Positions 1-9,878 of a stretch of DNA of 9,878 nucleotides are shown piece by piece; within the stretch, counting starts at the first letter, position 1; every line of letters starts with the position of its first letter. Both the position numbers and the translations under genes were made by a program. The notes beneath the pieces were generated by a model that saw only the letters and a program-made list of their open reading frames with translations, made no database searches and was not told the DNA's origin. Location: the IMG/VR virus record IMGVR_UViG_2703718826_000003, positions 1 through 9,878 of that record; one strand, given 5' to 3'. Source of the DNA: a virus. Taxonomy: Duplodnaviria > Heunggongvirae > Uroviricota > Caudoviricetes.

Positions 1-1
1 G

Positions 2-265
2 GAACTGGCCAGACATCTAGAATTTACTGTCAGCACCGGCGTTAAAGTTTACTTCTGCGATCCTCAGAGTCCTTGGCAGCGGGGAACAAATGAGAACACA
101 AATGGGCTAATTCGGCAGTACTTTCCTAAAAAGACATGTCTTGCCCAATATACTCAACATGAACTAGATCTGGTTGCTGCTCAGCTAAACAACAGACCGA
201 GAAAGACACTGAAGTTCAAAACACCGAAAGAGATAATTGAAAGGGGTGTTGCATTGACAGATTGA
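2..265 (+). CDS. IS30-family transposase, C-terminal fragment (5' end outside window)
   Basis: Frame 2 is open from window start to TGA at 263-265; translation ELARHLEFTVSTGVKVYFCDPQSPWQRGTNENTNGLIRQYFPKK...ERGVALTD matches my recollection of the IS30 transposase C-terminus including the catalytic-region NENTNGL motif. Confidence 0.85.
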   Translation, partial: ELARHLEFTVSTGVKVYFCDPQSPWQRGTNENTNGLIRQYFPKKTCLAQYTQHELDLVAAQLNNRPRKTLKFKTPKEIIERGVALTD

Positions 266-272
266 ATCTACA
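247..272. repeat. IS30 right terminal inverted repeat (26 bp)
   Basis: TGTTGCATTGACAGATTGAATCTACA, resembling the IS30 terminal repeat from memory; directly abuts unrelated phage DNA. Confidence 0.75.
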
Positions 273-299
273 GTGTTGTATTGTATAAATAGAGTACAT

Positions 300-340
300 A
301 AAGCCATCAATATTTCTATCGATGGCTTTATCTTTTTATT
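300..340. terminator. Hairpin plus T-tract, putative intrinsic terminator (clearest on + strand, possibly bidirectional)
   Basis: Perfect 9-bp stem AAAGCCATC(300-308)/GATGGCTTT(321-329) with 12-nt loop, followed on the + strand by ATCTTTTTATT; sits between the IS30 end and the stop of the minus-strand tail fibre assembly gene. The U-tract on the minus-strand transcript is weaker. Confidence 0.45.
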
Positions 341-914
341 GCGGGGCGACTGGCCACTCAACATCCGCTGCTACTGCTGTATCAACACGATTCAACAATA
401 CCCGATATGTCTTCCATGCAGTCAGTAACGATGCCTCTTCCTCCGTCGCAATATCCAAATCTACGGCATCCTGAAGTGGCGCAATATGCTCACTGGCCAT
501 CTGCATCAGGCTGTTTTTTGTTTCTTCCGCCTTCCGGATCCGGAACAGTTTTTCTGCTTCTGCATCTTTCACCCAGGCTGTGCCGTTCCACTTCTGAAAC
601 TCCCCTTCCGGGGATAACCAGGTGACATTTTCCGGTAATGGGCCAAGTTCAGAAATAAATAACGCGTCGCCGGAAGCCACGTCATAGACGGTTTTTCCCC
701 GATGGTCTTCAACGAGATTCCACGATGCCTCATCACTGTTGAAAACGGCCACGAAGCCAGCCGGAATATCTGGCGGGGCAATATCGGTACTGTTTGCAGG
801 CAGACCTGTATGAGGTGGAATGTATGCATCACCTTCACCAATAAACTCATTGGTTCCAGCCAGTAGATTATAAATTTTTATGGTCCGTGATTGTTCACTC
901 ATTCTGAATGTCAT
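336..914 (-). CDS. tfa: Tail fibre assembly protein (Tfa / Mu-P1 U-type chaperone)
   Basis: 192-aa ORF; N-terminus [48 protein letters not shown] is the typical enterobacterial tail fibre assembly signature as I recall it. Start ATG overlaps the upstream tail-fibre stop (TAATG, minus strand 916-912), indicating translational coupling. Confidence 0.9.
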
Positions 915-2530
915 TATGCAAGCCTCACAATATAGTTAAATGCGATGTTTTTTACGGTGTTTTCTTCGTTACCCGTAGCGTTAACGGTGATGGTGTGTCC
1001 GTGGGGACCAATAATGACAGAATGGGCATGAGCACCAATGCCGATAGTGTGGTTATGGGCACCGATATATACATTGTGAGCATGCCCTCCTGCGCTCGAC
1101 GTGGTACCAGTACCTAACGCAGCGTTATAACCGGCTGATACACCATTCCCCGCGCCAGTGTGACCAACAGGTATATTGTGTGAATGAGCTCCTGCGCTAT
1201 TTGTGGTTTTTGTGCCGTAATCAAATGAACTGGTCGTTTTAGTACCGTAATCAAACGACGATGTGGTTTTCGTCCCCAAATCCGTACTGGATGCACTGGC
1301 GCTGTGGGTGTGCGATTTAATGCCGTCCTGTTCCTGAGACAATACTGCACGACCACTGGCGGGCTTGCCCTTAATCGTCCAGCTACGCATATCAGGGATC
1401 ACACCTGACGGATAAGCGGCTGCAAGTTTCGGGTATGCAGATTTGTCAAAAGTCTGCCCCTGCATCAGGGCATAACCAGACGGAACGGTATCTGATGGCC
1501 AAGGGATCGGTGCGCCAACCGGATAAAGTTCATGCGGCGAAATATACAGCGAATAAACAGAACCGTCCGTTAATCCTTCCGGCTTATTAGCAGAATATGC
1601 TGGTGAAGTATGAATCGTTACGCTGGCATTACTGGTATAATCCCATTGAATATTTACACCAGTCGCATAATTTCCAATAGCAACGTAAATATCGTAAGTG
1701 TCACCAGAAGTATTGACCCACGCAAAATTTGTAAACCCTGCCGATGTGCGCTGCCATAAAGCTCCAGTAATCCCCTTCGGATTACCGTTACCTGCACGCA
1801 AAACAAGTTCAGATATACCTGCCTGTTGAGGTGACCCCACGTTAAATCCCGCGCCACCAATCAACGTAATTGAAACAACAGAACTTGCCTGCGGCATGGT
1901 TACAGTTGCCAGCTTGAACCATCCTGCACCACCACTAAAAGACATTGTTGTGGAGTTGATTGTGCCTATAGACCGTGGGTTAAGTTCAATATCTTTAGAA
2001 CCATCAAACGAGACGCCATTGATAGCACATGCTGTCTGCAACTTGGTCGCTGTAGCCGCATTACCAGAGGTGTCCTGATTCCCTTTGGCATTGACGCCGG
2101 GAATTGAATCTTTTGACGTATAGACCTGCGCCCATTCAGACCAGTTGGCAGAATCAGTATCCCGCCGCGAACGGATATGTACGGGCGCATGGGCACCGCT
2201 CGTGCCACTCCAGCCAATGAATAACTCACCTTCGCCAGCAGCGGTGGCACCTTTAAGGTGAAGCACATTGCCATAGGGGGAAGGGTAGCCATTGTTGTAT
2301 GCCTCATACAGCTGAATCCCGGATGTTCCCTGTGCATTCGCCTCCAGGGCCGTTACGCGACCGCGAGATACCAGAGTATTGATATTAATGTCAGCCGAAC
2401 CATCGAACCTGACGCCATTAATGTTTCTGGCTGTTTTTAATTTCGTCGCGGTGTCGGCGTTCCCCGCCAGCGCCCCGGTGATCCCACCGTTGAAAGTCTG
2501 GCGTGCACTCCATGTGTTAGCCGTGCTCAA
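914..2530 (-). CDS. Tail fibre protein, variable C-terminal (receptor-binding) cassette, Sv/Sv'-like; no canonical start, frame open upstream to 2608 through the crossover site
   Basis: 538-aa ORF with two tail-fibre repeat units (GNADTATKL...[15 protein letters not shown] and [29 protein letters not shown]), a His-x-His-rich C-terminus, and a downstream coupled chaperone gene. First conventional start is TTG at 2530; in-frame translation continues upstream across the cix-like site with no stop until TAA at 2609-2611, consistent with a cassette fused to a constant 5' part by inversion. Confidence 0.85.
1202..1276 (-). repeat. In-frame 30-bp tandem coding repeat (2.5 copies) in the tail fibre gene
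   Basis: Encodes [25 protein letters not shown]. Units 1247-1276 and 1217-1246 are identical at protein level but differ at roughly 11 of 30 nucleotides, almost all synonymous. Confidence 0.7.
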
Positions 2531-2560
2531 CAGGGGGATCTTTTCACCGCTTGTGCCAAG

Positions 2561-2586
2561 TTCTCTTAAACCAAGGTTTAGGATTG
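2561..2586. other. cix/gix-type crossover site for the adjacent serine invertase
   Basis: TTCTCTTAAACC-AA-GGTTTAGGATTG: 26-bp imperfect dyad (9 of 12 half-site positions symmetric) around a central AA, with the AAACC..GGTTT core shared by hix/gix/cix/pix sites. It overlaps the invertase stop codon (2578-2580) and the tail fibre frame reads through it. Confidence 0.8.
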
Positions 2587-3138
2587 AAATGATGACGCCG
2601 GAAACTTCTTATAAAGCGTGGAAACAGCCACATCATAGATGATTGCAACCTGCTTACGGGGGATGCCCTTCTCGAGCAATCGCCGCATTTGCTGCCATGT
2701 TTCTTCTTGGTATTTAGGCCGACGCCCACCTATACGACCTTCTGCGCGAGCTGCATCAAGTCCAGCGCGTGTACGTTCAACGATAAGCTCACGTTCCATT
2801 TCTGCCAGCGCCCCCATTACGTGAAAGAAAAAGCGCCCCATTGGTGTACTGGTGTCGATGGAGTCAGTGAGACTCCGGAAGTTAATGCCTCTGTCACGCA
2901 GCTCTTCCACCAGCACAACTAAGTGACGCATGCTGCGCCCAAGACGATCTAACTTCCATACGACTAGGGTGTCACCTCTGGAAAGCATACGGAGAACCTT
3001 TTTTAACCCAGGGCGTTCAGCCTTTTTGCCGCTCGCCTTGTCCTCAAAAATTAGCTTACATCCTGCGCTTTCAAGGGCATTTCGTTGTAAAGCAGTGTTT
3101 TGTTCATTTGTTGATACGCGTACATAGCCAATTAGCAT
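2578..3138 (-). CDS. cin: Serine DNA invertase, Cin/Gin/Pin/Hin family (186 aa)
   Basis: N-terminus [22 protein letters not shown] with catalytic Ser in the RVSTNEQ motif, conserved [15 protein letters not shown] and GRIGGRRPK segments, and a C-terminal helix-turn-helix-like [13 protein letters not shown]. Length 186 aa, same as P1 Cin as I recall. Gene ends within the crossover site. Confidence 0.93.
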
Positions 3139-3265
3139 ATTTTCTGCTCACCATAGTTATTCATAGCAAGCTGCGGATTTTAATTAACAGAAACCAGTGT
3201 GTGTGGAAATCACAAAGTGCATACCGTGCCCCAATGATGTTTTATTGAAAAGCGGGGTTACTTTA
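3139..3265. promoter_or_regulatory. Divergent intergenic control region between the invertase gene and the plus-strand operon (promoters not resolved)
   Basis: 127-bp AT-rich spacer between divergent starts. One weak sigma70-like candidate for the invertase on the minus strand: -35 TTAATT (complement of 3182-3187), 16-bp spacer, -10 TATGAA (complement of 3160-3165). No confident plus-strand promoter identified by eye. Confidence 0.25.
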
Positions 3266-3547
3266 ATGTTTGATTTAACCATATTTTTTATAACCATCCT
3301 TGGAGGCGTGCATTCGTTTCTGAATGGGGTTCGTGAAAAACGTTACGAAGCGTCATGCAGGCAATTGATGGCCGAGTGTATTGCTGCCGTACTTGCAGGC
3401 TTTATAGGCATGTATTTCGCGGAATATAAGGGTATGGATGAAAGTCTTCAGAATTGCGTGACTATTATTTGCAGCATCAATAACAGGCTCATTCTTGAAA
3501 AGTTACAAAGGATTATCGATTCGTACCTCAGTAGCAATGCCTCTTAA
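3266..3547 (+). CDS. Small holin-like membrane protein (two predicted transmembrane helices); possibly LydC-like
   Basis: ORF track gives 3197-3547 from a GTG with no ribosome-binding site. ATG at 3266 is preceded by GGGG 8 nt upstream and gives a 93-aa protein with two hydrophobic segments (LTIFFITILGGVHSFL, IAAVLAGFIGMYFAEY). Start and function uncertain. Confidence 0.5.
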   Translation: MFDLTIFFITILGGVHSFLNGVREKRYEASCRQLMAECIAAVLAGFIGMYFAEYKGMDESLQNCVTIICSINNRLILEKLQRIIDSYLSSNAS

Positions 3548-3587
3548 GCAACAAATGACCGGTTGAGAAGTTACTTTGCATACCATT

Positions 3588-3609
3588 ACCTCCTGACAAC
3601 GTAGGAGGG
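3588..3609 (+). promoter_or_regulatory. Hairpin pairing the Shine-Dalgarno sequence of the downstream holin gene with an upstream anti-SD
   Basis: CCTCCT (3589-3594) and AGGAGG (3603-3608) form a 6-bp stem with an 8-nt loop; AGGAGG is the ribosome-binding site 6 nt upstream of the GTG start at 3615. Confidence 0.4.
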
Positions 3610-3614
3610 AACTT

Positions 3615-3944
3615 GTGCTTGACACACAGGAATTAGCTCCAGTTGCTATTGCGCTCCTGCTTTCAGTAATTGGTGGGATAGGCACGTTCCTGATGGATGT
3701 CCGAGACGGTCGCCAGTCTGGCAATTTGTTGGGATTGGTTACGGAGATCTTTGTTGCAGTGACAGCTGGCGCGGTGGCGTACCTATTGGGGCAACACGAG
3801 GGCTGGGAGTTATCAATTACGTACTTAATGGTAACGATAGCCAGCAATAACGGTCATGAGGTGATTTCAGGGATGAAACGAGTGAATATCGATAGCATTC
3901 TGAATGTTCTTACAAGTTTGGTGAAAAAGGGAGGCGGGAAATGA
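3615..3944 (+). CDS. lydA: Holin (LydA-like), 109 aa
   Basis: GTG start with strong AGGAGG ribosome-binding site; hydrophobic segments LAPVAIALLLSVIGGIGTFL and LLGLVTEIFVAVTAGAVAYLL, charged C-terminal tail KKGGGK; size and position match P1 lydA as I recall it. Stop overlaps the next start (ATGA). Confidence 0.7.
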   Translation: MLDTQELAPVAIALLLSVIGGIGTFLMDVRDGRQSGNLLGLVTEIFVAVTAGAVAYLLGQHEGWELSITYLMVTIASNNGHEVISGMKRVNIDSILNVLTSLVKKGGGK

Positions 3945-4384
3945 TTGGCTGGGGTGTATGCGTTCTTGCGTTAGCCTTAGCCGATCGCTATTTGCTAAAA
4001 CGCAAGGACATCACGCATTTAGAACTTGGTGATGTGGAAATTAAACCGGGTTTCATCCGGGTGCCGTTCAAATACCGGTCTAAATTCCCGTTTTTGCGCG
4101 GCGCAACAGTCAGATATTGGATCCGCGATGTTCAGAAGCCGACGACAGTGATTGAAGGCGAACAACGTTGTTTGACGTCGGCTGAACAGGGCGAAAACAG
4201 TGAATGGTTGTACATACCCACTGAATATATGGGTAAAGGAGAGCGACTGTGGCATTTCAACGTCATGGTTACGCATGGCGACTCGTTCATTAACCCGTTG
4301 TATCGGATTTTCCCTGTTACTCAGCAAATCCGCAGAAGTTACGTAATAAATCTCGCACAGGATGTGTCAGATGACGAAAAATAA
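3941..4384 (+). CDS. lydB: LydB-like protein (putative antiholin / lysis regulator), 147 aa, N-terminal membrane anchor
   Basis: ATG overlaps the holin stop (ATGA at 3941-3944) with an AGGGAGG ribosome-binding site inside the 3' end of the holin gene; N-terminal hydrophobic stretch MIGWGVCVLALALA then a soluble domain. Assignment rests on size and order relative to P1. Confidence 0.55.
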   Translation: MIGWGVCVLALALADRYLLKRKDITHLELGDVEIKPGFIRVPFKYRSKFPFLRGATVRYWIRDVQKPTTVIEGEQRCLTSAEQGENSEWLYIPTEYMGKGERLWHFNVMVTHGDSFINPLYRIFPVTQQIRRSYVINLAQDVSDDEK

Positions 4385-4973
4385 GTATGCAACGGTCGAT
4401 TTTGACCAGGTTAATGAAAAGGGGCTGAAATCCCTTATCGCGGCGATCAATAAAACCGGGGTTACGGTAATTGAGGTTGACTCCAGCAACCGCGCAACAA
4501 CGAAAGATGGCGTTAAAGTTAAAACCGCAAAGCTGGTTCTTAACGACGGACAAATCCTTGCCATACAGGTAAACGATACTGGCGATATATCGTCTGTGAA
4601 ACTGAATGGAAAAGCTATTCCTAACGCTCAGTCGCCGGATATCAAGACGCTTGGTACCGTCATGGGACAGGCGGCCCGCAAAAACTCCGCAAAATTCCAG
4701 AAATCACTGATCGCCAAAGCGAAGCGTGTAGCCAATCCGGTAGACAAGAAACCGGCAGTTAAATCCAACTTTCAGCGCCTGCAAGAAGCAAAACAGCGGA
4801 ATGCTCAGGTGGTTGCCGCTTATAAGTCCGCGCAGAATTCGGTGTCTTTCAATCAACAGCAGATCACTGATTTGCGGGCGAAGCTGGATAAGGAGACGGG
4901 CCGACTCAATAACGAAAAGGCACGGAATGGCGAACTCAAACGTCGTCTTAAGCAACTGAAAGCAGGAAATTAA
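4371..4973 (+). CDS. Hdf/DarA-family protein (short paralogue), about 200 aa, C-terminal coiled coil
   Basis: ATG at 4371 has AGGA 8 nt upstream (the ORF-track start at 4362 has none). Contains the KNSAKFQ motif followed by a predicted coiled coil; the same motif and architecture recur in the next protein. Confidence 0.6.
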   Translation: MTKNKYATVDFDQVNEKGLKSLIAAINKTGVTVIEVDSSNRATTKDGVKVKTAKLVLNDGQILAIQVNDTGDISSVKLNGKAIPNAQSPDIKTLGTVMGQAARKNSAKFQKSLIAKAKRVANPVDKKPAVKSNFQRLQEAKQRNAQVVAAYKSAQNSVSFNQQQITDLRAKLDKETGRLNNEKARNGELKRRLKQLKAGN

Positions 4974-4974
4974 C

Positions 4975-6006
4975 ATGGAACAGTTCAATATCAATAAAGG
5001 GGTGACGATCAAGCCTGGGCTTGACGTGCTTCCCCCGCCAGTGACTGATGATGAATATCGCGCATTAATGGCCGGTGAGGACCGCTATCTGATGACGGAA
5101 TCCAACACCCTGGAGGAAATCGAGGCTACGTTCTTCTATGACACGCCGATCCACTGGTGTGCTACGGATTTACTGGAGGCGATTAGTTCTACTCGTTTGC
5201 AGTTACACCGGACCATGCAGGCATTTGTCCGGGCATTGAACCAGAAGCTGAATGGCACCGGAATCTCTGCGGGGAGTGATAAAACGGGGGATGTGGCCCA
5301 GAGCGGCGCGCGCGCGATCGGCGGTGCTGAAATTGGCCGGGCACGGAACGTTAACGGGCTGCCGGTCCTGCCAGCCATTATTCCGCTCAGTGATGGTCAG
5401 ACTATCAGCATTCTGTTTCATAGCCCGACAGCGGAAAACCGGATCACCAATAGCGATACGCTGGTTGCTTTCCAGTTCTTACTGAATAAAAAAGACGTTA
5501 CTCACACCGTTGCTCCGATGAGTGGACGTGATATGACGCTGGCGCAGGTCACCATGAAACTTGCCAACCTTGCAGAGAAAAACTCGGCAAAATTCCAGCG
5601 TGCGCAGAAGAAGAAAAAAGCCCTGGTTGATGAAATAACCCAACTACAGGCTGACAGTGACCAGAAAGAGGATGCCATGAGCGACCTCGCGGATCAGGTG
5701 GCAGCGGTAGAAGGGCAGAAGGTAGATCTGGAGCAGAAAATTAACGCTGTTGCATCGGAAGCGGATTCTCTTTATGAAGAGAATGAGCGTTTGCAGACGG
5801 AGATTGATCAGCTCAATCGCACTGGTGGGCGCGAAACCATTGCTCCTGCGGGGATGACTGGTGGACACTCTCGCGCGATGACGGATCGCCTTGCAAGTAT
5901 CAAAAATCGTATGCATATGAACGGGGAAGTGACGCTCAGTAATGGTGCATCAATGAAGCAATTCATTGAGGACGGTGAAGGGTATATCCAGTTAACTGGG
6001 ATGTGA
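4975..6006 (+). CDS. DarA-like protein (antirestriction / head-morphogenesis family), 343 aa
   Basis: ATG 4975 with AGGA 7 nt upstream, 1 nt after the previous stop. Contains KNSAKFQ followed by a long heptad-like coiled coil (LVDEITQLQADSDQKEDAMSDLADQVAAVEGQKVDLEQKINAV...). Naming by analogy to the P1 darA operon from memory. Confidence 0.6.
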   Translation: MEQFNINKGVTIKPGLDVLPPPVTDDEYRALMAGEDRYLMTESNTLEEIEATFFYDTPIHWCATDLLEAISSTRLQLHRTMQAFVRALNQKLNGTGISAGSDKTGDVAQSGARAIGGAEIGRARNVNGLPVLPAIIPLSDGQTISILFHSPTAENRITNSDTLVAFQFLLNKKDVTHTVAPMSGRDMTLAQVTMKLANLAEKNSAKFQRAQKKKKALVDEITQLQADSDQKEDAMSDLADQVAAVEGQKVDLEQKINAVASEADSLYEENERLQTEIDQLNRTGGRETIAPAGMTGGHSRAMTDRLASIKNRMHMNGEVTLSNGASMKQFIEDGEGYIQLTGM

Positions 6007-7391
6007 AGACGCTGGATAAACAGGTTGATGTAACTCCCGATGAAGATGCTGTTATGCAGAAAATCAGTGGTGGCGTCTCCATCGCCGGGATTAACGACAT
6101 CATTTCCTGTGACGATTTCTACCGTTTCCAGCAGCGCGGCATGATCAAAATCACTGACTCATACGGCGTTCAGACTACAGAGTCAGGCTATAGCATTGAT
6201 TTTGTTGGTACCTATACGGACCCACTGAAGCATGCGGTTTACCCGGATCGCCGTGACGGCGCGCTGAAGTCGTCAATTGCAAAATGGGTGCTTGGTATGA
6301 TGTCGGAAGGGAATAACCGCCAGATCCGTTCGGCAGAAACATTCCTGGTTGAACTGTTTGGCTCCAATTATGGCGATGTAATCGCGTCATACGGAGATAC
6401 GCTATCCCCTGAAGCAATTCAGGAGAAAATAGCGGATGCGATCGCCAGAATGCCGGAAAAAACAAGCCAGGGGGCTACTCGTAACGGGGATTCTGAACTT
6501 GAAGTCACCAATGCCATTTTCGGTACCAATGAGTTCCGGGCGTCAGATTATGAGATCACCACAGCACAGTTTGGCACCATTGGCATTTACAGCAATAAAG
6601 CCGAGATCAAGCAGGCAATGGACGCAGCAAGCGCGCGCATCGCAGCAGAACGGGAAGCCAATCTGAATCATGCAGTCGCCGCACTGACTCAATCGTGGGT
6701 AACAGCAATCAGGGAGGCCGCCACCACAGGGAAAATCACACCTGCAATTGCGGATGTCGTAAACGACGGCTCTAAATTTATGGATGCCTATCAAATGGAT
6801 GCGGTGCAGTTGCCATCAGCCTATGGCCAACTCAGCTATCGCATGACCTACAACCTGGTATCAATGTTTACTGACCTTGCCATCCTTGGGCTGGTGGACC
6901 TTAACGAGGTTACGCCGGAATTACTCAGCATGCGCAAGAATCATGTTGAGATATTGCAGAGAATTAACACGGTTCTTGCCGGGCGCACCGATGAAGAGAA
7001 ACAGGCCGACGCTGATCGGATAAACCTGGCCCTAGGCAACATCACGGAGGAAGAAATTGCCGCCAGAAACGAGAAACAAGAAGAGTTATCATCAATACAG
7101 GGTGATGCCACCAGCATAGCTCAGTCTCTTGGGCTGAATTATCGCGTATCCACCGCCGACCTGAAGATGATGTACGCACCAAAATTCGCCGCTGGCGAGG
7201 TATTTGGGCTTCAGGAAGCCTCCGGCATGAAAGGGGTTCTTTTCCGTGCGAAAGACGCAATCAAGGCGAAATTCGGCGCTCGCTGGTTGCCAGCGAAGGC
7301 GAAGAACAGCGACTTCCCAGGTAACTGGTGGATTATCGAGACAAAACACAACGTGGCGGACGTTCTGGCCGTCATCCAACAATACGCATAA
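6003..7391 (+). CDS. Hypothetical protein of the Dar-like operon, 462 aa (possibly the C-terminal portion or partner of DarA)
   Basis: Long ORF with GTG start overlapping the upstream stop (ATGTGA at 6001-6006); coding-like composition; no motif I can assign. Confidence 0.6.
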   Translation: MKTLDKQVDVTPDEDAVMQKISGGVSIAGINDIISCDDFYRFQQRGMIKITDSYGVQTTESGYSIDFVGTYTDPLKHAVYPDRRDGALKSSIAKWVLGMMSEGNNRQIRSAETFLVELFGSNYGDVIASYGDTLSPEAIQEKIADAIARMPEKTSQGATRNGDSELEVTNAIFGTNEFRASDYEITTAQFGTIGIYSNKAEIKQAMDAASARIAAEREANLNHAVAALTQSWVTAIREAATTGKITPAIADVVNDGSKFMDAYQMDAVQLPSAYGQLSYRMTYNLVSMFTDLAILGLVDLNEVTPELLSMRKNHVEILQRINTVLAGRTDEEKQADADRINLALGNITEEEIAARNEKQEELSSIQGDATSIAQSLGLNYRVSTADLKMMYAPKFAAGEVFGLQEASGMKGVLFRAKDAIKAKFGARWLPAKAKNSDFPGNWWIIETKHNVADVLAVIQQYA

Positions 7392-7396
7392 CAGGA

Positions 7397-7416
7397 GCGC
7401 CCGGTTCGCCGGGCGT
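7397..7416 (+). other. GC-rich hairpin with UUCG tetraloop in the intergenic spacer
   Basis: GCGCCCGG-TTCG-CCGGGCGT, 7-8 bp GC stem closing a UUCG tetraloop, between the stop at 7389-7391 and the ATG at 7425; not followed by a U-tract. Confidence 0.5.
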
Positions 7417-7424
7417 CGCATAAT

Positions 7425-7865
7425 ATGGCCACATTATCTGATACAATAAAACCGAATAAAACATATCTTGAGGCGGTGCTGCGTACGGCGTTGTTAGGAA
7501 AGACAGAAGACGAATACGTTGATTTCTTCCTGTCAGGGCTACGCGGGCGATTACTGAAAAATCCCCGCCTGTACCGCAGCTATGGTCCATACTGGCCGGA
7601 AATTAAAAAATTATTACTGGAGCGCGGTTATGGTAATTTCGGTCGTCTCGTTGACCGTGACGTTCGCAAAATTTACCGTTATGACCGTCCGGCGCTGACG
7701 CTCATAGCCGCGACGCTCTACAGCCAGGAGCGTTTTGATAATGGTCAGATATACTCAGCCTGGCATTTACTGCCAGTGCCTGAAGAGGTTGACGACCAGG
7801 ACTATGAGTTTGAGTCTTACGATTTGGAAGTTGAAGCCTTGGCACAGGCTGGAGAGAAAACTTGA
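7425..7865 (+). CDS. Hypothetical protein, 146 aa, strongly acidic C-terminal tail
   Basis: ATG start after the hairpin; C-terminus PVPEEVDDQDYEFESYDLEVEALAQAGE; stop overlaps the next start (TTGA). Confidence 0.55.
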   Translation: MATLSDTIKPNKTYLEAVLRTALLGKTEDEYVDFFLSGLRGRLLKNPRLYRSYGPYWPEIKKLLLERGYGNFGRLVDRDVRKIYRYDRPALTLIAATLYSQERFDNGQIYSAWHLLPVPEEVDDQDYEFESYDLEVEALAQAGEKT

Positions 7866-8110
7866 AGAAGCGATACTACACAGTAAAGCATGGGACGCTA
7901 CGAGCATTGCAAGAGTTTGCTGATAAGCATAACGTTGAGGTGCGCAGGGAAGGGGGAAGTAAAGCTCTGCGCATGTACCGTCCTGACGGAAAATGGCGGA
8001 CGGTCGTCGATTTCAAAACTAACAGTGTTCCCCAGGGCGTCCGCGACCGGGCATTCGAAGAATGGGAGCAGATCATCATAGATAACGCATTGCTTCTGAA
8101 CGCTGATTAA
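7862..8110 (+). CDS. Hypothetical small basic protein, 82 aa, translationally coupled to the upstream gene
   Basis: TTG start with GGAGAG 7 nt upstream, overlapping the upstream stop (cTTGA); K/R-rich N-terminal half. Confidence 0.45.
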   Translation: MKKRYYTVKHGTLRALQEFADKHNVEVRREGGSKALRMYRPDGKWRTVVDFKTNSVPQGVRDRAFEEWEQIIIDNALLLNAD

Positions 8111-8120
8111 TAATCATTTA

Positions 8121-8141
8121 AAGCCCATATGATATGGGCTT
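8121..8141. repeat. Perfect 10-bp-arm palindrome (AAGCCCATAT g ATATGGGCTT)
   Basis: Lies 11 bp after the 82-aa gene stop and 22 bp before the AT-rich gene; no U-tract on either side, so an operator, RNA-processing or stability hairpin is as likely as a terminator. Confidence 0.45.
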
Positions 8142-8162
8142 AAACAACAGGATCGATATACA

Positions 8163-9203
8163 GTGTTAGTTAAATATATAGGCGAGAGTTATATGGAAAA
8201 ACCTTGGCCGGGCATGCACATTAGAACATCTTGTCTGGAGGATGGTTTCTTTAGAGCAACGCAACCAAAGTATCTTAATGATCCGTCGAGTGAGTCGCGA
8301 CTTCTTCCATTTTTTAATAAATTTTCACCAGCCGATTACGCATGGGCTAGAAATGAATTTAAGAAAATGCAACGAGATCCATCTTATGTCCCATCTATAC
8401 AAGAGTTAGAGTATTATTTAAAACCTTGCGGGAAACGATACGGAGAGGATTTTCCACACTTGTTAATCAATGAAGGTTTTACCTCAATGGATTCATATGA
8501 TGAATCTAAACTCCAAGAAATAGTAACGTACCTTAACGATTATTTAGTAGAAGCCGTAAGCTGTCATCTTGGTGTATTCTCTCTATCAAAAAGTGATTGC
8601 AATCTACACATGTGGACTCATTATGCATCGATAGGAAAGGGGTTTGCTGTAGTTTTCGATGAAACACACGATTTTTTCAAAATATATAGGCCGTGTGATG
8701 TTAGTTATAATCCAGAAGATAGAGCATCTGTAACCTATTATAAAGGCGCTGTGCGATTTAATGGCTATCCTGCGCCATCGAGGAATATAGATATAAAGAA
8801 TAAAGATAATACATTGCATGGGATCTTAAATCGAGATTCAGTTCGCGAGCTTTTTATTAATAGGCTCCTTTATACAAAAGGTGAAGAGTGGCTTCCTGAA
8901 AATGAAAGTAGAATTATTTTTCCTTTAGCTGATTGCGAGAGAAAGATAGGAAGTATTGTCTCTCCATCGATTGATGATTGCCTATTAAATGAGTATCCTG
9001 ATGTTTTTCATGACTATCATGAAATTAACTTAAAGAAAATTCCTTTTTCTGCATTCAAGCAAATTACCTTAGGGTATAACATGACTGAAAAAGATAAAAA
9101 TATAATTTTAGATAAAGTTAGTTCGAATAAAGAATTGTCTCACGTCAACGTATTATATTCAAAACTTGATATATACGGAAAGGTTGTGGTTAAGCCCATG
9201 TAA
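8163..9203 (+). CDS. AT-rich cargo gene, 346-aa protein with DUF2971-like motifs; function unknown
   Basis: GC content visibly lower than flanking phage genes. Motifs LVKYIG...FRATQPKYLNDPSSE and SCHLGVFSLS...NLHMWTHYASIGKGFAVVFDE resemble the DUF2971 family as I recall it (N-terminal LYKY, NDP-E, MW-HYA). Start is GTG 8163 or ATG 8193. Confidence 0.6.
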   Translation: MLVKYIGESYMEKPWPGMHIRTSCLEDGFFRATQPKYLNDPSSESRLLPFFNKFSPADYAWARNEFKKMQRDPSYVPSIQELEYYLKPCGKRYGEDFPHLLINEGFTSMDSYDESKLQEIVTYLNDYLVEAVSCHLGVFSLSKSDCNLHMWTHYASIGKGFAVVFDETHDFFKIYRPCDVSYNPEDRASVTYYKGAVRFNGYPAPSRNIDIKNKDNTLHGILNRDSVRELFINRLLYTKGEEWLPENESRIIFPLADCERKIGSIVSPSIDDCLLNEYPDVFHDYHEINLKKIPFSAFKQITLGYNMTEKDKNIILDKVSSNKELSHVNVLYSKLDIYGKVVVKPM

Positions 9204-9287
9204 TAATACGCTTATGTCTACACTTCATGATAAATACCTTCCTTAACTTAGGAAGGTTAGTTGTAGGTTTACGCAGAAAGTAACAAA

Positions 9288-9320
9288 TAACCTTCGTAGG
9301 TTATAGAATATTATTCTTTC
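9288..9320 (+). terminator. Weak terminator candidate after the AT-rich gene
   Basis: Stem TAACCT / AGGTTA with TCGT loop (9288-9303) followed by the T-rich TAGAATATTATTCTTTCC; a second small hairpin ACCTTCC/GGAAGGT lies at 9236-9257. Confidence 0.3.
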
Positions 9321-9347
9321 CGGTGAGTATTCCTTGAGGAACTCTAG

Positions 9348-9363
9348 GGAAGGTGCGAATAAG
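9348..9363. repeat. IS5 terminal inverted repeat (16 bp)
   Basis: GGAAGGTGCGAATAAG at the junction with the AT-rich flank. Confidence 0.8.
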
Positions 9364-9493
9364 TGGGGAAATTCTTCTCGGCTGACTCAGTCATTTCATT
9401 TCTTCATGTTTGAGCCGATTTTTTCTCCCGTAAATGCCTTGAATCAGCCTATTTAGACCGTTTCTTCGCCATTTAAGGCGTTATCCCCAGTTT

Positions 9494-9878
<385 letters not shown>

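Follow-up and report, generated by a model that had tools for sequence, protein, structure and literature searches.

A probable phage-plasmid relic with a silent, IS30-truncated half of a P1-type tail-fibre switch

The DNA analysed here (the window) is a stretch of 9,878 nucleotides from the IMG/VR virus record IMGVR_UViG_2703718826_000003, and its positions 273-2586 very probably represent the silent, cin-proximal half of an invertible segment of the type carried by the P1-like phage-plasmids JL22 and p15648-1, cut by IS30 and retained in a decayed relic that is no longer a phage. In intact relatives the segment has the order cixR, Sv (Mu-like), U, sacF, then convergent to sacF the gene tfa, Sv' (lambda Stf-like tip), cixL and cin. 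Cin, aided by an enhancer situated within cin, flips this segment, and in this way one or the other 3' cassette is joined, in the same reading frame, to the 5' constant region of S. What is left of it in the window is cixL, Sv', tfa, the hairpin between tfa and sacF and the end of sacF cut by IS30. The surrounding P1 DNA is a fossil, marked by a darA::darB deletion and bounded on the other side by IS5.

Boundary between IS30 and P1-like DNA

The first 272 nucleotides of the window (1-272, + strand) are the 3' end of IS30, with the C-terminal codons of the transposase, its stop codon at 263-265, and then the inverted repeat of the right terminus, whose edge reads ...GATTGAATCTACA with 272 as the last base. 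They differ at 2 of 272 positions (99.3% identity) from a complete 1221-bp IS30 that carries a 2-bp target duplication, and annotated IS30 copies were also matched; the match to the full-length element confirms the terminal repeat that the original prediction had placed at 272. IS30 (IS30 family, copy-out-paste-in) is about 1.2 kb long, encodes a DDE transposase and is flanked by imperfect repeats of 26 bp, and the terminal 272 bp visible in the window, with a canonical right inverted repeat and only the right end in view, agree with that description. In every record compared, position 273 is the very first base that is homologous to P1-like plasmids.

The IS30/273 junction was found in the window and in three other assemblies, namely L023/L026 (human gut metagenome), L024 and L025, the last of which has an additional IS within tfa that splits the junction from the remainder of the cassette. 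The three contigs beside the window, all of them short, came from exact-protein look-ups, and a scan of JGI/ENA metagenomes for the junction gave a single match, a 9.46-kb gut-metagenome contig identical with the one already known. The junction was absent from 5,426 complete E. coli genomes, from 72,556 PLSDB plasmids and from the GTDB species representatives. All four contigs with the junction terminate within IS30, and the DNA to the left of the element is therefore irrecoverable. The window, which is probably an entire short-read contig, begins in IS30 and ends in IS5 as such contigs typically do, a situation in which the junction could be suspected of being an assembly chimera at a repeat; its recurrence in three other independent assemblies makes this hardly credible. 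The flank of IS30 showed, among other IS30 targets, a loose resemblance only to the ycjM insertion site.

Directly to the right of IS30 lie the last 20 bp of sacF (273-292, + strand), a serine/hexapeptide acetyltransferase gene of which six codons and the stop TAG (290-292) survive. Position 273 corresponds to position 7001 of the intact relative L001, where the sacF coding sequence spans 6448-7020, and the break falls mid-way in the 5.44-kb invertible segment of the intact relatives. A profile search gave Hexapep matches for the sacF product under the Pfam cut-off, and a search for sacF homologues returned names without functional evidence. A 190-aa ORF beside IS1 in sibling plasmids was considered as a candidate sacF and was ruled out for having no DNA similarity.

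A hairpin with a 15-bp stem (298-331) is located between the convergent tfa and sacF. Its fold reaches -20.5 kcal/mol on the tfa strand (z -5.9); for the + strand the z is -4.0, and there the hairpin is followed by a T-run, on the sacF side. The predicted fold makes the hairpin a likely bidirectional terminator, and a simple terminator scan did not list it. A terminator shared by two cassettes had been proposed at this place, 28 bp from the IS30 repeat; the strong hairpin is indeed there, but the spacing measures 25 bp and the neighbours of the hairpin in the nearest intact relatives are tfa and sacF, not tfa and the partner cassette.

A silent fibre cassette beside an intact cin

The gene following the hairpin, tfa (336-914, - strand), encodes a lambda-type tail-fibre assembly chaperone (Caudo_TAP, 3.5e-42), and its ATG overlaps the stop codon of the fibre by 1 nt. 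The tfa region has 88% DNA identity to lambda stf-tfa, and an identical Tfa protein occurs in P1-like and P2-like elements. The fibre part (917-2572, - strand) is an Sv'-type 3' segment coding for the C-terminal ~554 aa of a fibre, with a match to JL22 Stf and a Collar domain, and it has no constant part, promoter or proper start. Within it, 914-1527 is the tip common to P2-like prophages and lambda Stf, and 1979-2584 is a 0.6-kb repeat present in both fibre variants, of which L001 holds an inverted 606-bp copy.

The original prediction that this cassette is a currently unexpressed copy was borne out on several points. The first start of the fibre ORF (914-2530) is a TTG, the frame remains open upstream across cix, and a scan of the minus strand for sigma-70-like promoters in 1-3400 found none. 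The cassette is moreover colinear with residues 451-1006 of the expressed 1006-aa fibre (Stf) of JL22, that is its C-terminal 556 aa, of which 550 are identical. These sequence features support the reading of the cassette as the unexpressed, cin-proximal copy. The cassette, tfa and cin are all free of disabling mutations, suggesting either that the decay is recent or that some selection still acts; we infer that nothing in the relic is expressed, with the possible exception of cin.

The crossover site cixL (2561-2586, sequence TTCTCTTAAACCAAGGTTTAGGATTG, central AA at 2573-2574) maps to the annotated cixL of P1, overlaps the stop codon of cin and is the sole cix in the window. The gene cin (2578-3138, - strand) encodes an intact serine DNA invertase with Resolvase and HTH_7 domains, identical to P1 Cin in 185 of 186 residues (99%). 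A region homologous to the P1 recombinational enhancer, a putative place of Fis binding located by mapped position only, lies within cin at 3049-3120; this part of the window belongs to the stretch 1983-5996, which aligns with P1 without gaps at 97.4%. An adjacent serine invertase gene and a 26-bp boundary crossover site, as expected of an invertible segment, are present, and two alternative 3' cassettes with chaperones, together with a constant 5' part and its promoter outside the segment, were not found in the DNA examined. Two inverted cix inner half-sites are found in the intact relatives L001 and L002 and in P1, and a second inverted cix is missing from the window, from 39.5 kb of the NCTC9040 sibling and from L023-L025, which have one site each. 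Likewise, Sc, Sv and U had no match in the window, L003 or L023-L025, leaving only the Sv'-tfa cassette.

Comparison with the invertible segments of relatives

The C segment of P1 (cin, cixL/cixR, Sv-U / U'-Sv') also has cixL overlapping the cin stop, its 0.6-kb repeat is 96.5-97.4% identical to window 1983-2584, and its cassette likewise stands beside cin, points away from cix and lacks its own start. The tip and the chaperone, on the other hand, are lambda Stf/Tfa-like in the window and Mu-like in P1; the subtype to which the window belongs has sacF between its two chaperone genes, unlike P1, and the window itself has only one cix and one cassette. The closest likeness is to the JL22/p15648-1 subtype of P1-like phage-plasmids (PMC9603915), which shows the same order of tfa, hairpin and sacF, with DNA identities of 98.4-99.5% to p15648-1 and three other subtype plasmids across window 273-3200 and of 99.3% to JL22 across 273-2584. 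Members of this subtype are complete phage-plasmids of 97-100 kb with an intact 5.44-kb segment, whereas the window has an IS30-cut sacF and a deleted backbone. Both orientations of the segment occur among close relatives, H26-H29 being arranged like the window, as is p15648-1, and JL22 and H31-H35 being inverted.

These comparisons modify the expectation that a second cassette lies convergently just past the chaperone gene: it holds in P1, where U and U' face each other across 28 bp, but in the nearest intact relatives (p15648-1, JL22) the gene convergent to tfa is sacF, encoding a hexapeptide acetyltransferase. The proposal that IS30 lies inside the invertible segment is correct when read against these relatives; the further proposal that it sits in place of the partner cassette does not hold, since the element cuts the 3' end of sacF and the Sv-U cassette of the intact segment ends about 1 kb to the left of that point.

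Deletion of the P1 backbone and sibling elements

To the right of cin the P1 DNA is interrupted at a deletion junction with a 4-bp overlap (5993-5996), where darA codon ~341 is joined to the last 462 codons of darB. The possibility that foreign DNA begins at 5997 was rejected: window 5993-8110 corresponds to P1 11867-9750 (3' end of darB, ulx and lxc), joined to darA at P1 28802, and the break is therefore an internal P1 deletion, of 16.9 kb. In a P1-like phage the portal, pro, endolysin and ssb genes are encoded in the interval between the two joined ends; without them the element falls short of the full complement of head, lysis and tail genes expected of a functional phage-plasmid, and the junction shows it to be a defective P1 relic. 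The right end of the window (9345-9878) is an IS5 end, which matches the IS5 in the P1 record at 98.5% identity, is annotated as IS5 in NCTC9040 and bounds the relic.

The relic consisting of darA::darB, ulx, lxc and a DUF2971 gene recurs, with an identity of about 100%, both in E. coli NCTC9040 and in IncY/MOBH cargo plasmids rich in IS elements. The darA::darB junction ORF is widespread in IS-rich plasmids, for example LT883139.1 (IncY, MOBH, with lac and dgo operons). In NCTC9040, window 320-9878 is present with 99.98% identity and is framed by IS1 and IS5; IS1 stands there at 320, in place of the IS30 that the window has at 272. The relic there adjoins repA-parAB and mobH in an IS-rich chromosomal island, and neither a constant part of the fibre nor baseplate genes lie within 15 kb of it. 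P1-type repA-parAB and a MOBH relaxase are present in the siblings. No second cix or fibre constant part was found in the DNA examined from the siblings, and most of them lack cin and the cassette too, with IS1 abutting window position 3480, 3649 or 3669. An IS-bounded relic of this kind resembles the P1-derived IncY/p0111 plasmids from which phage genes have been lost (PMC10879196).

Discussion

The anatomy of the cassette, the insertion point of IS30, the deletion and the relic context of the siblings are observed directly; the fate of the part to the left of IS30 has to be judged from indirect evidence. A simple insertion of IS30 into sacF, with a 2-bp duplication, would leave the 5' part of sacF, U, Sv, cixR and the S constant part directly beyond the element, and Cin would still flip a segment of ~6.7 kb in an element that is defective all the same. 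The junction is clean to the base compared with the intact relative, no damage is seen in cin, cixL, Sv' and tfa, and simple insertion with a 2-bp duplication is the usual mode of IS30 (PMC9333248). With the DNA to the left out of view, the whole partner half, together with cixR, could still lie just past the element. However, the left half is retained in no sibling lineage, and the left junction predicted for such an event (sacF...GCGGT followed by TGTAGATTCAATTGG, spacer 0-6) had no match in genome and viral collections. The read-through protein expected from a sacF'::IS30 fusion, looked up in six versions, also had no exact match among 15 billion proteins, in a collection that includes the right-junction contigs; this is a weak negative, as a single residue difference defeats an exact look-up. 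On balance, simple insertion into an otherwise complete segment is rather unlikely, and a usable partner half is probably gone from the source. A more elaborate version, in which the partner half and cixR survive, Cin flips the IS30-carrying segment in a non-phage IncY plasmid and the relic is kept as a fibre-tip reservoir, is improbable. If it were true, the reservoir tips could recombine into co-resident P1-, P2- or lambda-like phages, and Cin might act in trans on crossover sites of such phages.

The suggestion that IS30 locks or inactivates the host-range switch of a live P1-like phage begins from a sound observation, as IS30 does fall inside the segment, and naturally locked P1-like phages are known. 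Two of these, vB_EcoM-Ro157c2YLVW and L009, have the same lambda-type tip, tfa and sacF, but their switch is deleted (no cin, no Sv and most of U' missing) and the cassette, joined to the constant part, is expressed, whereas the window keeps cin and has its cassette in the silent position, with no S constant part nearby. On its own, an insertion of 1.2 kb in the middle of the segment should presumably leave inversion by Cin possible; to abolish it would take the loss of the second cix. The 16.9-kb deletion, the IS30 and IS5 copies at the two edges and the fact that the siblings take the form of cargo plasmids or of an IS-rich island in a chromosome make a live, locked phage very improbable and the matter of its host range moot. 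The deleted phage genes could in principle reside elsewhere in the source genome. With the backbone reduced to a relic, the cassette would be silent and useless to any virion regardless of IS30.

The preferred reading therefore remains that of a silent half-segment in a decayed, non-phage element. P2-like prophages carry the tip-tfa-sacF module at 98% identity, and fibre tip, chaperone and sacF move as one between P1-like and P2-like phages, which hints that sacF is functionally linked to the receptor recognised by the tip. The conversion of P1-like phage-plasmids into plasmids through gene loss is documented (PMC10879196), and the present case is an instance of this known decay and not a new form of host-range control; outside of correct annotation its importance is small, the erosion of P1-like elements having already been described. 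The appropriate label is a defective P1-derived relic with cin, one cix, a silent lambda-type cassette and an IS30-cut sacF, and not a phage host-range switch. As such, it offers a small, clean case of IS30, IS1, IS3-family and IS5 elements wearing a phage-plasmid down to a cargo plasmid.

Organization of the cassette beside cin

The cin gene (2578-3138) encodes a protein identical to P1 Cin at 185 of 186 positions, and its stop codon is overlapped by a cix crossover site, TTCTCTTAAACCAAGGTTTAGGATTG (2561-2586), present once in the window; when the window is aligned to P1 (ungapped, 97.4%), the crossover annotated for P1 cixL coincides with the central AA at 2573/2574. Beside this site lie a fibre ORF of 538 codons (914-2530), whose earliest possible start is a TTG and whose upstream frame is open right through the crossover site, and tfa on the minus strand (336-914; Caudo_TAP match, 3.5e-42). 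Since the ORF and 18 codons upstream are colinear with residues 451-1006 of the expressed fibre (1006 aa) of the P1-like phage JL22, with 550 of 556 residues identical, the cassette is a 3' gene segment expressible only with the constant 5' part of gene S. The minus strand of 1-3400 yielded no sigma-70-like site. These results agree with the silent cassette of the original prediction, whose described features (IS30 end, hairpin, tfa, TTG-start ORF, cix and cin) were located at the predicted coordinates or a few bases away.

Three layers compose the cassette: a 0.6-kb repeat (1979-2584) found as inverted copies at both segment ends in P1 and relatives, a JL22-subtype-specific stretch (1528-1978), and the fibre tip, tfa and a sacF stub (273-1527), 98% identical in P2-like prophages and including 352-1523, which is 88% identical to lambda stf-tfa. 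A 30-bp tandem repeat of 2.3 copies (1202-1270), encoding 10-letter peptide repeats, lies directly upstream of His-rich HxH motifs in the fibre tip.

IS30 insertion within sacF

Positions 1-272 represent the IS30 3' end, with 2 mismatches to a complete 1221-bp IS30 copy that has a 2-bp target duplication; the transposase stop codon lies at 263-265, and the element's right terminal repeat finishes ...GATTGAATCTACA at 272. The alignment of all P1-like records begins precisely at 273, and the IS30/273 junction is real, since it recurs in three further independent assemblies. In the intact relative p15648-1 (L001), a plasmid whose segment is oriented as in the window (99.5% identity) and inverted in JL22, 5.44 kb separate two inverted cix inner half-sites. 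By this layout some 2.3 kb lie between the insertion point (equivalent to L001 7000/7001) and cixL, and 3.1 kb between it and cixR, so that IS30 does lie inside the invertible segment, as proposed.

A convergent partner cassette had been expected just beyond the chaperone gene, reasonably enough from P1, where U and U' are convergent with 28 bp between them. In p15648-1 and JL22, however, it is sacF, a 190-aa hexapeptide acetyltransferase gene, that is convergent to tfa, 43 bp off, and Mu-like U and Sv lie at least 0.5 kb further upstream of sacF. IS30 thus did not displace the partner cassette but sits within sacF, 20 bp before its end. Because of this position and of the convergent sacF in the nearest intact relatives, the hairpin (298-331; 15-bp stem; -20.5 kcal/mol and z -5.9 when read on the tfa strand; z -4.0 with a T-run behind it on the + strand) would be the tfa/sacF terminator, and not one common to two fibre cassettes as had been thought.

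The lydC-cin-Sv'-U'-U-S interval was already given as a hypervariable region of P1-like phage-plasmids in the JL22 paper (PMC9603915), which left the role of sacF unexplained. Fibre tip, tfa and convergent sacF form one module (window 273-1527; records L004-L010), which P1-like phage-plasmids share at 98% identity with P2-like prophages; in the latter it sits between H and the tail genes. That P1-like and P2-like elements have these genes in common as one module suggests that sacF is functionally tied to the receptor bound by the tip.

One sibling contig, from an assembly that also has the IS30/273 junction, carries an extra IS3-family element within the 3' end of tfa (L025 2580-3880), with window 379-386 on both flanks, as expected of a target duplication. 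The DNA beside the IS30 right end (273-286, GTGTTGTATTGTAT) loosely resembles the DNA beside a common IS30 insertion, the one in ycjM (L028 1444-1457, ATGTTGTCTTTATG), a likeness which IS30 target preference may explain.

Loss of virion genes and sibling relics

P1 32815-28802 (cin to mid-darA) aligns with window 1983-5996, and P1 11867-9750 (last 462 darB codons, followed by ulx and lxc) with 5993-8110. These alignments share 4 bp at 5993-5996, and the first ~341 darA codons are so joined to the last 462 of darB (4975-7391). The darA::darB junction is an internal P1 deletion of 16.9 kb; a P1-like phage has its portal, pro, endolysin, ssb, ddrB and ddrA genes in this interval. Where P1 has its res-mod restriction system, just after lxc, the window has a DUF2971 gene of low G+C (0.34-0.40; 8163-9203), and an IS5 end begins at 9345. 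A public contig collection lists the 343-aa junction ORF in 755 blocks, a very wide distribution, and its long contigs are IS-rich plasmids with P1-type repA-parAB (24 contigs read).

In E. coli NCTC9040, window 320-9878 is present at 99.98% identity, with IS1 (L003 14248-15000) abutting 320 inside the hairpin, whereas IS30 ends at 272 in the window; repA-parAB, mobH and numerous IS elements surround the relic, and the S constant part, U, Sv and a second cix are all absent from the 39.5 kb examined. Most siblings have neither cin nor the cassette, IS1 abutting window 3480, 3649 or 3669, and the IS1 endpoints look like a series of successive IS1-mediated deletions. Plasmid LT883139.1, typed IncY and MOBH, has the lac and dgo operons aboard.

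Every contig with the IS30/273 junction stops inside IS30. Neither this right junction nor the predicted left one was present in closed genomes, PLSDB plasmids, species-representative genomes or viral contigs, and no record of the predicted sacF'::IS30 read-through protein was found, which is a weak negative. The partner half has probably been lost; a simple IS30 insertion, with that half still there beyond the element, is considered rather unlikely.

Fate of the switch

In intact relatives, Cin recombination between cixL and cixR joins the constant part to either Sv or Sv', and near-identical plasmids show both segment orientations. Going by what is known of this recombinase family, a 1.2-kb mid-segment insertion alone would not be expected to block inversion, and locking would therefore need the loss of cixR. 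The original suggestion of a phage locked by IS30 does not hold, there being no phage to lock after a deletion that includes portal, pro and endolysin. In this element a single cix is visible, the constant part is apparently missing and there is no virion left for a fibre to decorate; the cassette is therefore a fossil, probably still intact through recent decay.

Truly locked P1-like phages do exist, and originate from cin-Sv-U' deletion. In NC_050153.1 (24152-29278) and L009 (7152-12278), the loss of lydC, cin, Sv and the greater part of U' has left a lambda-type tip in permanent fusion with the fibre; such phages are host-range variants locked by nature.

Taken together, the original observation was largely correct and its interpretation partly right. 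P1-like phage-plasmids are documented to turn into mobilisable plasmids as genes are lost and IS elements act on them (PMC10879196), and the element in the window and its siblings match this process, as a known kind of event leaving a known kind of relic.
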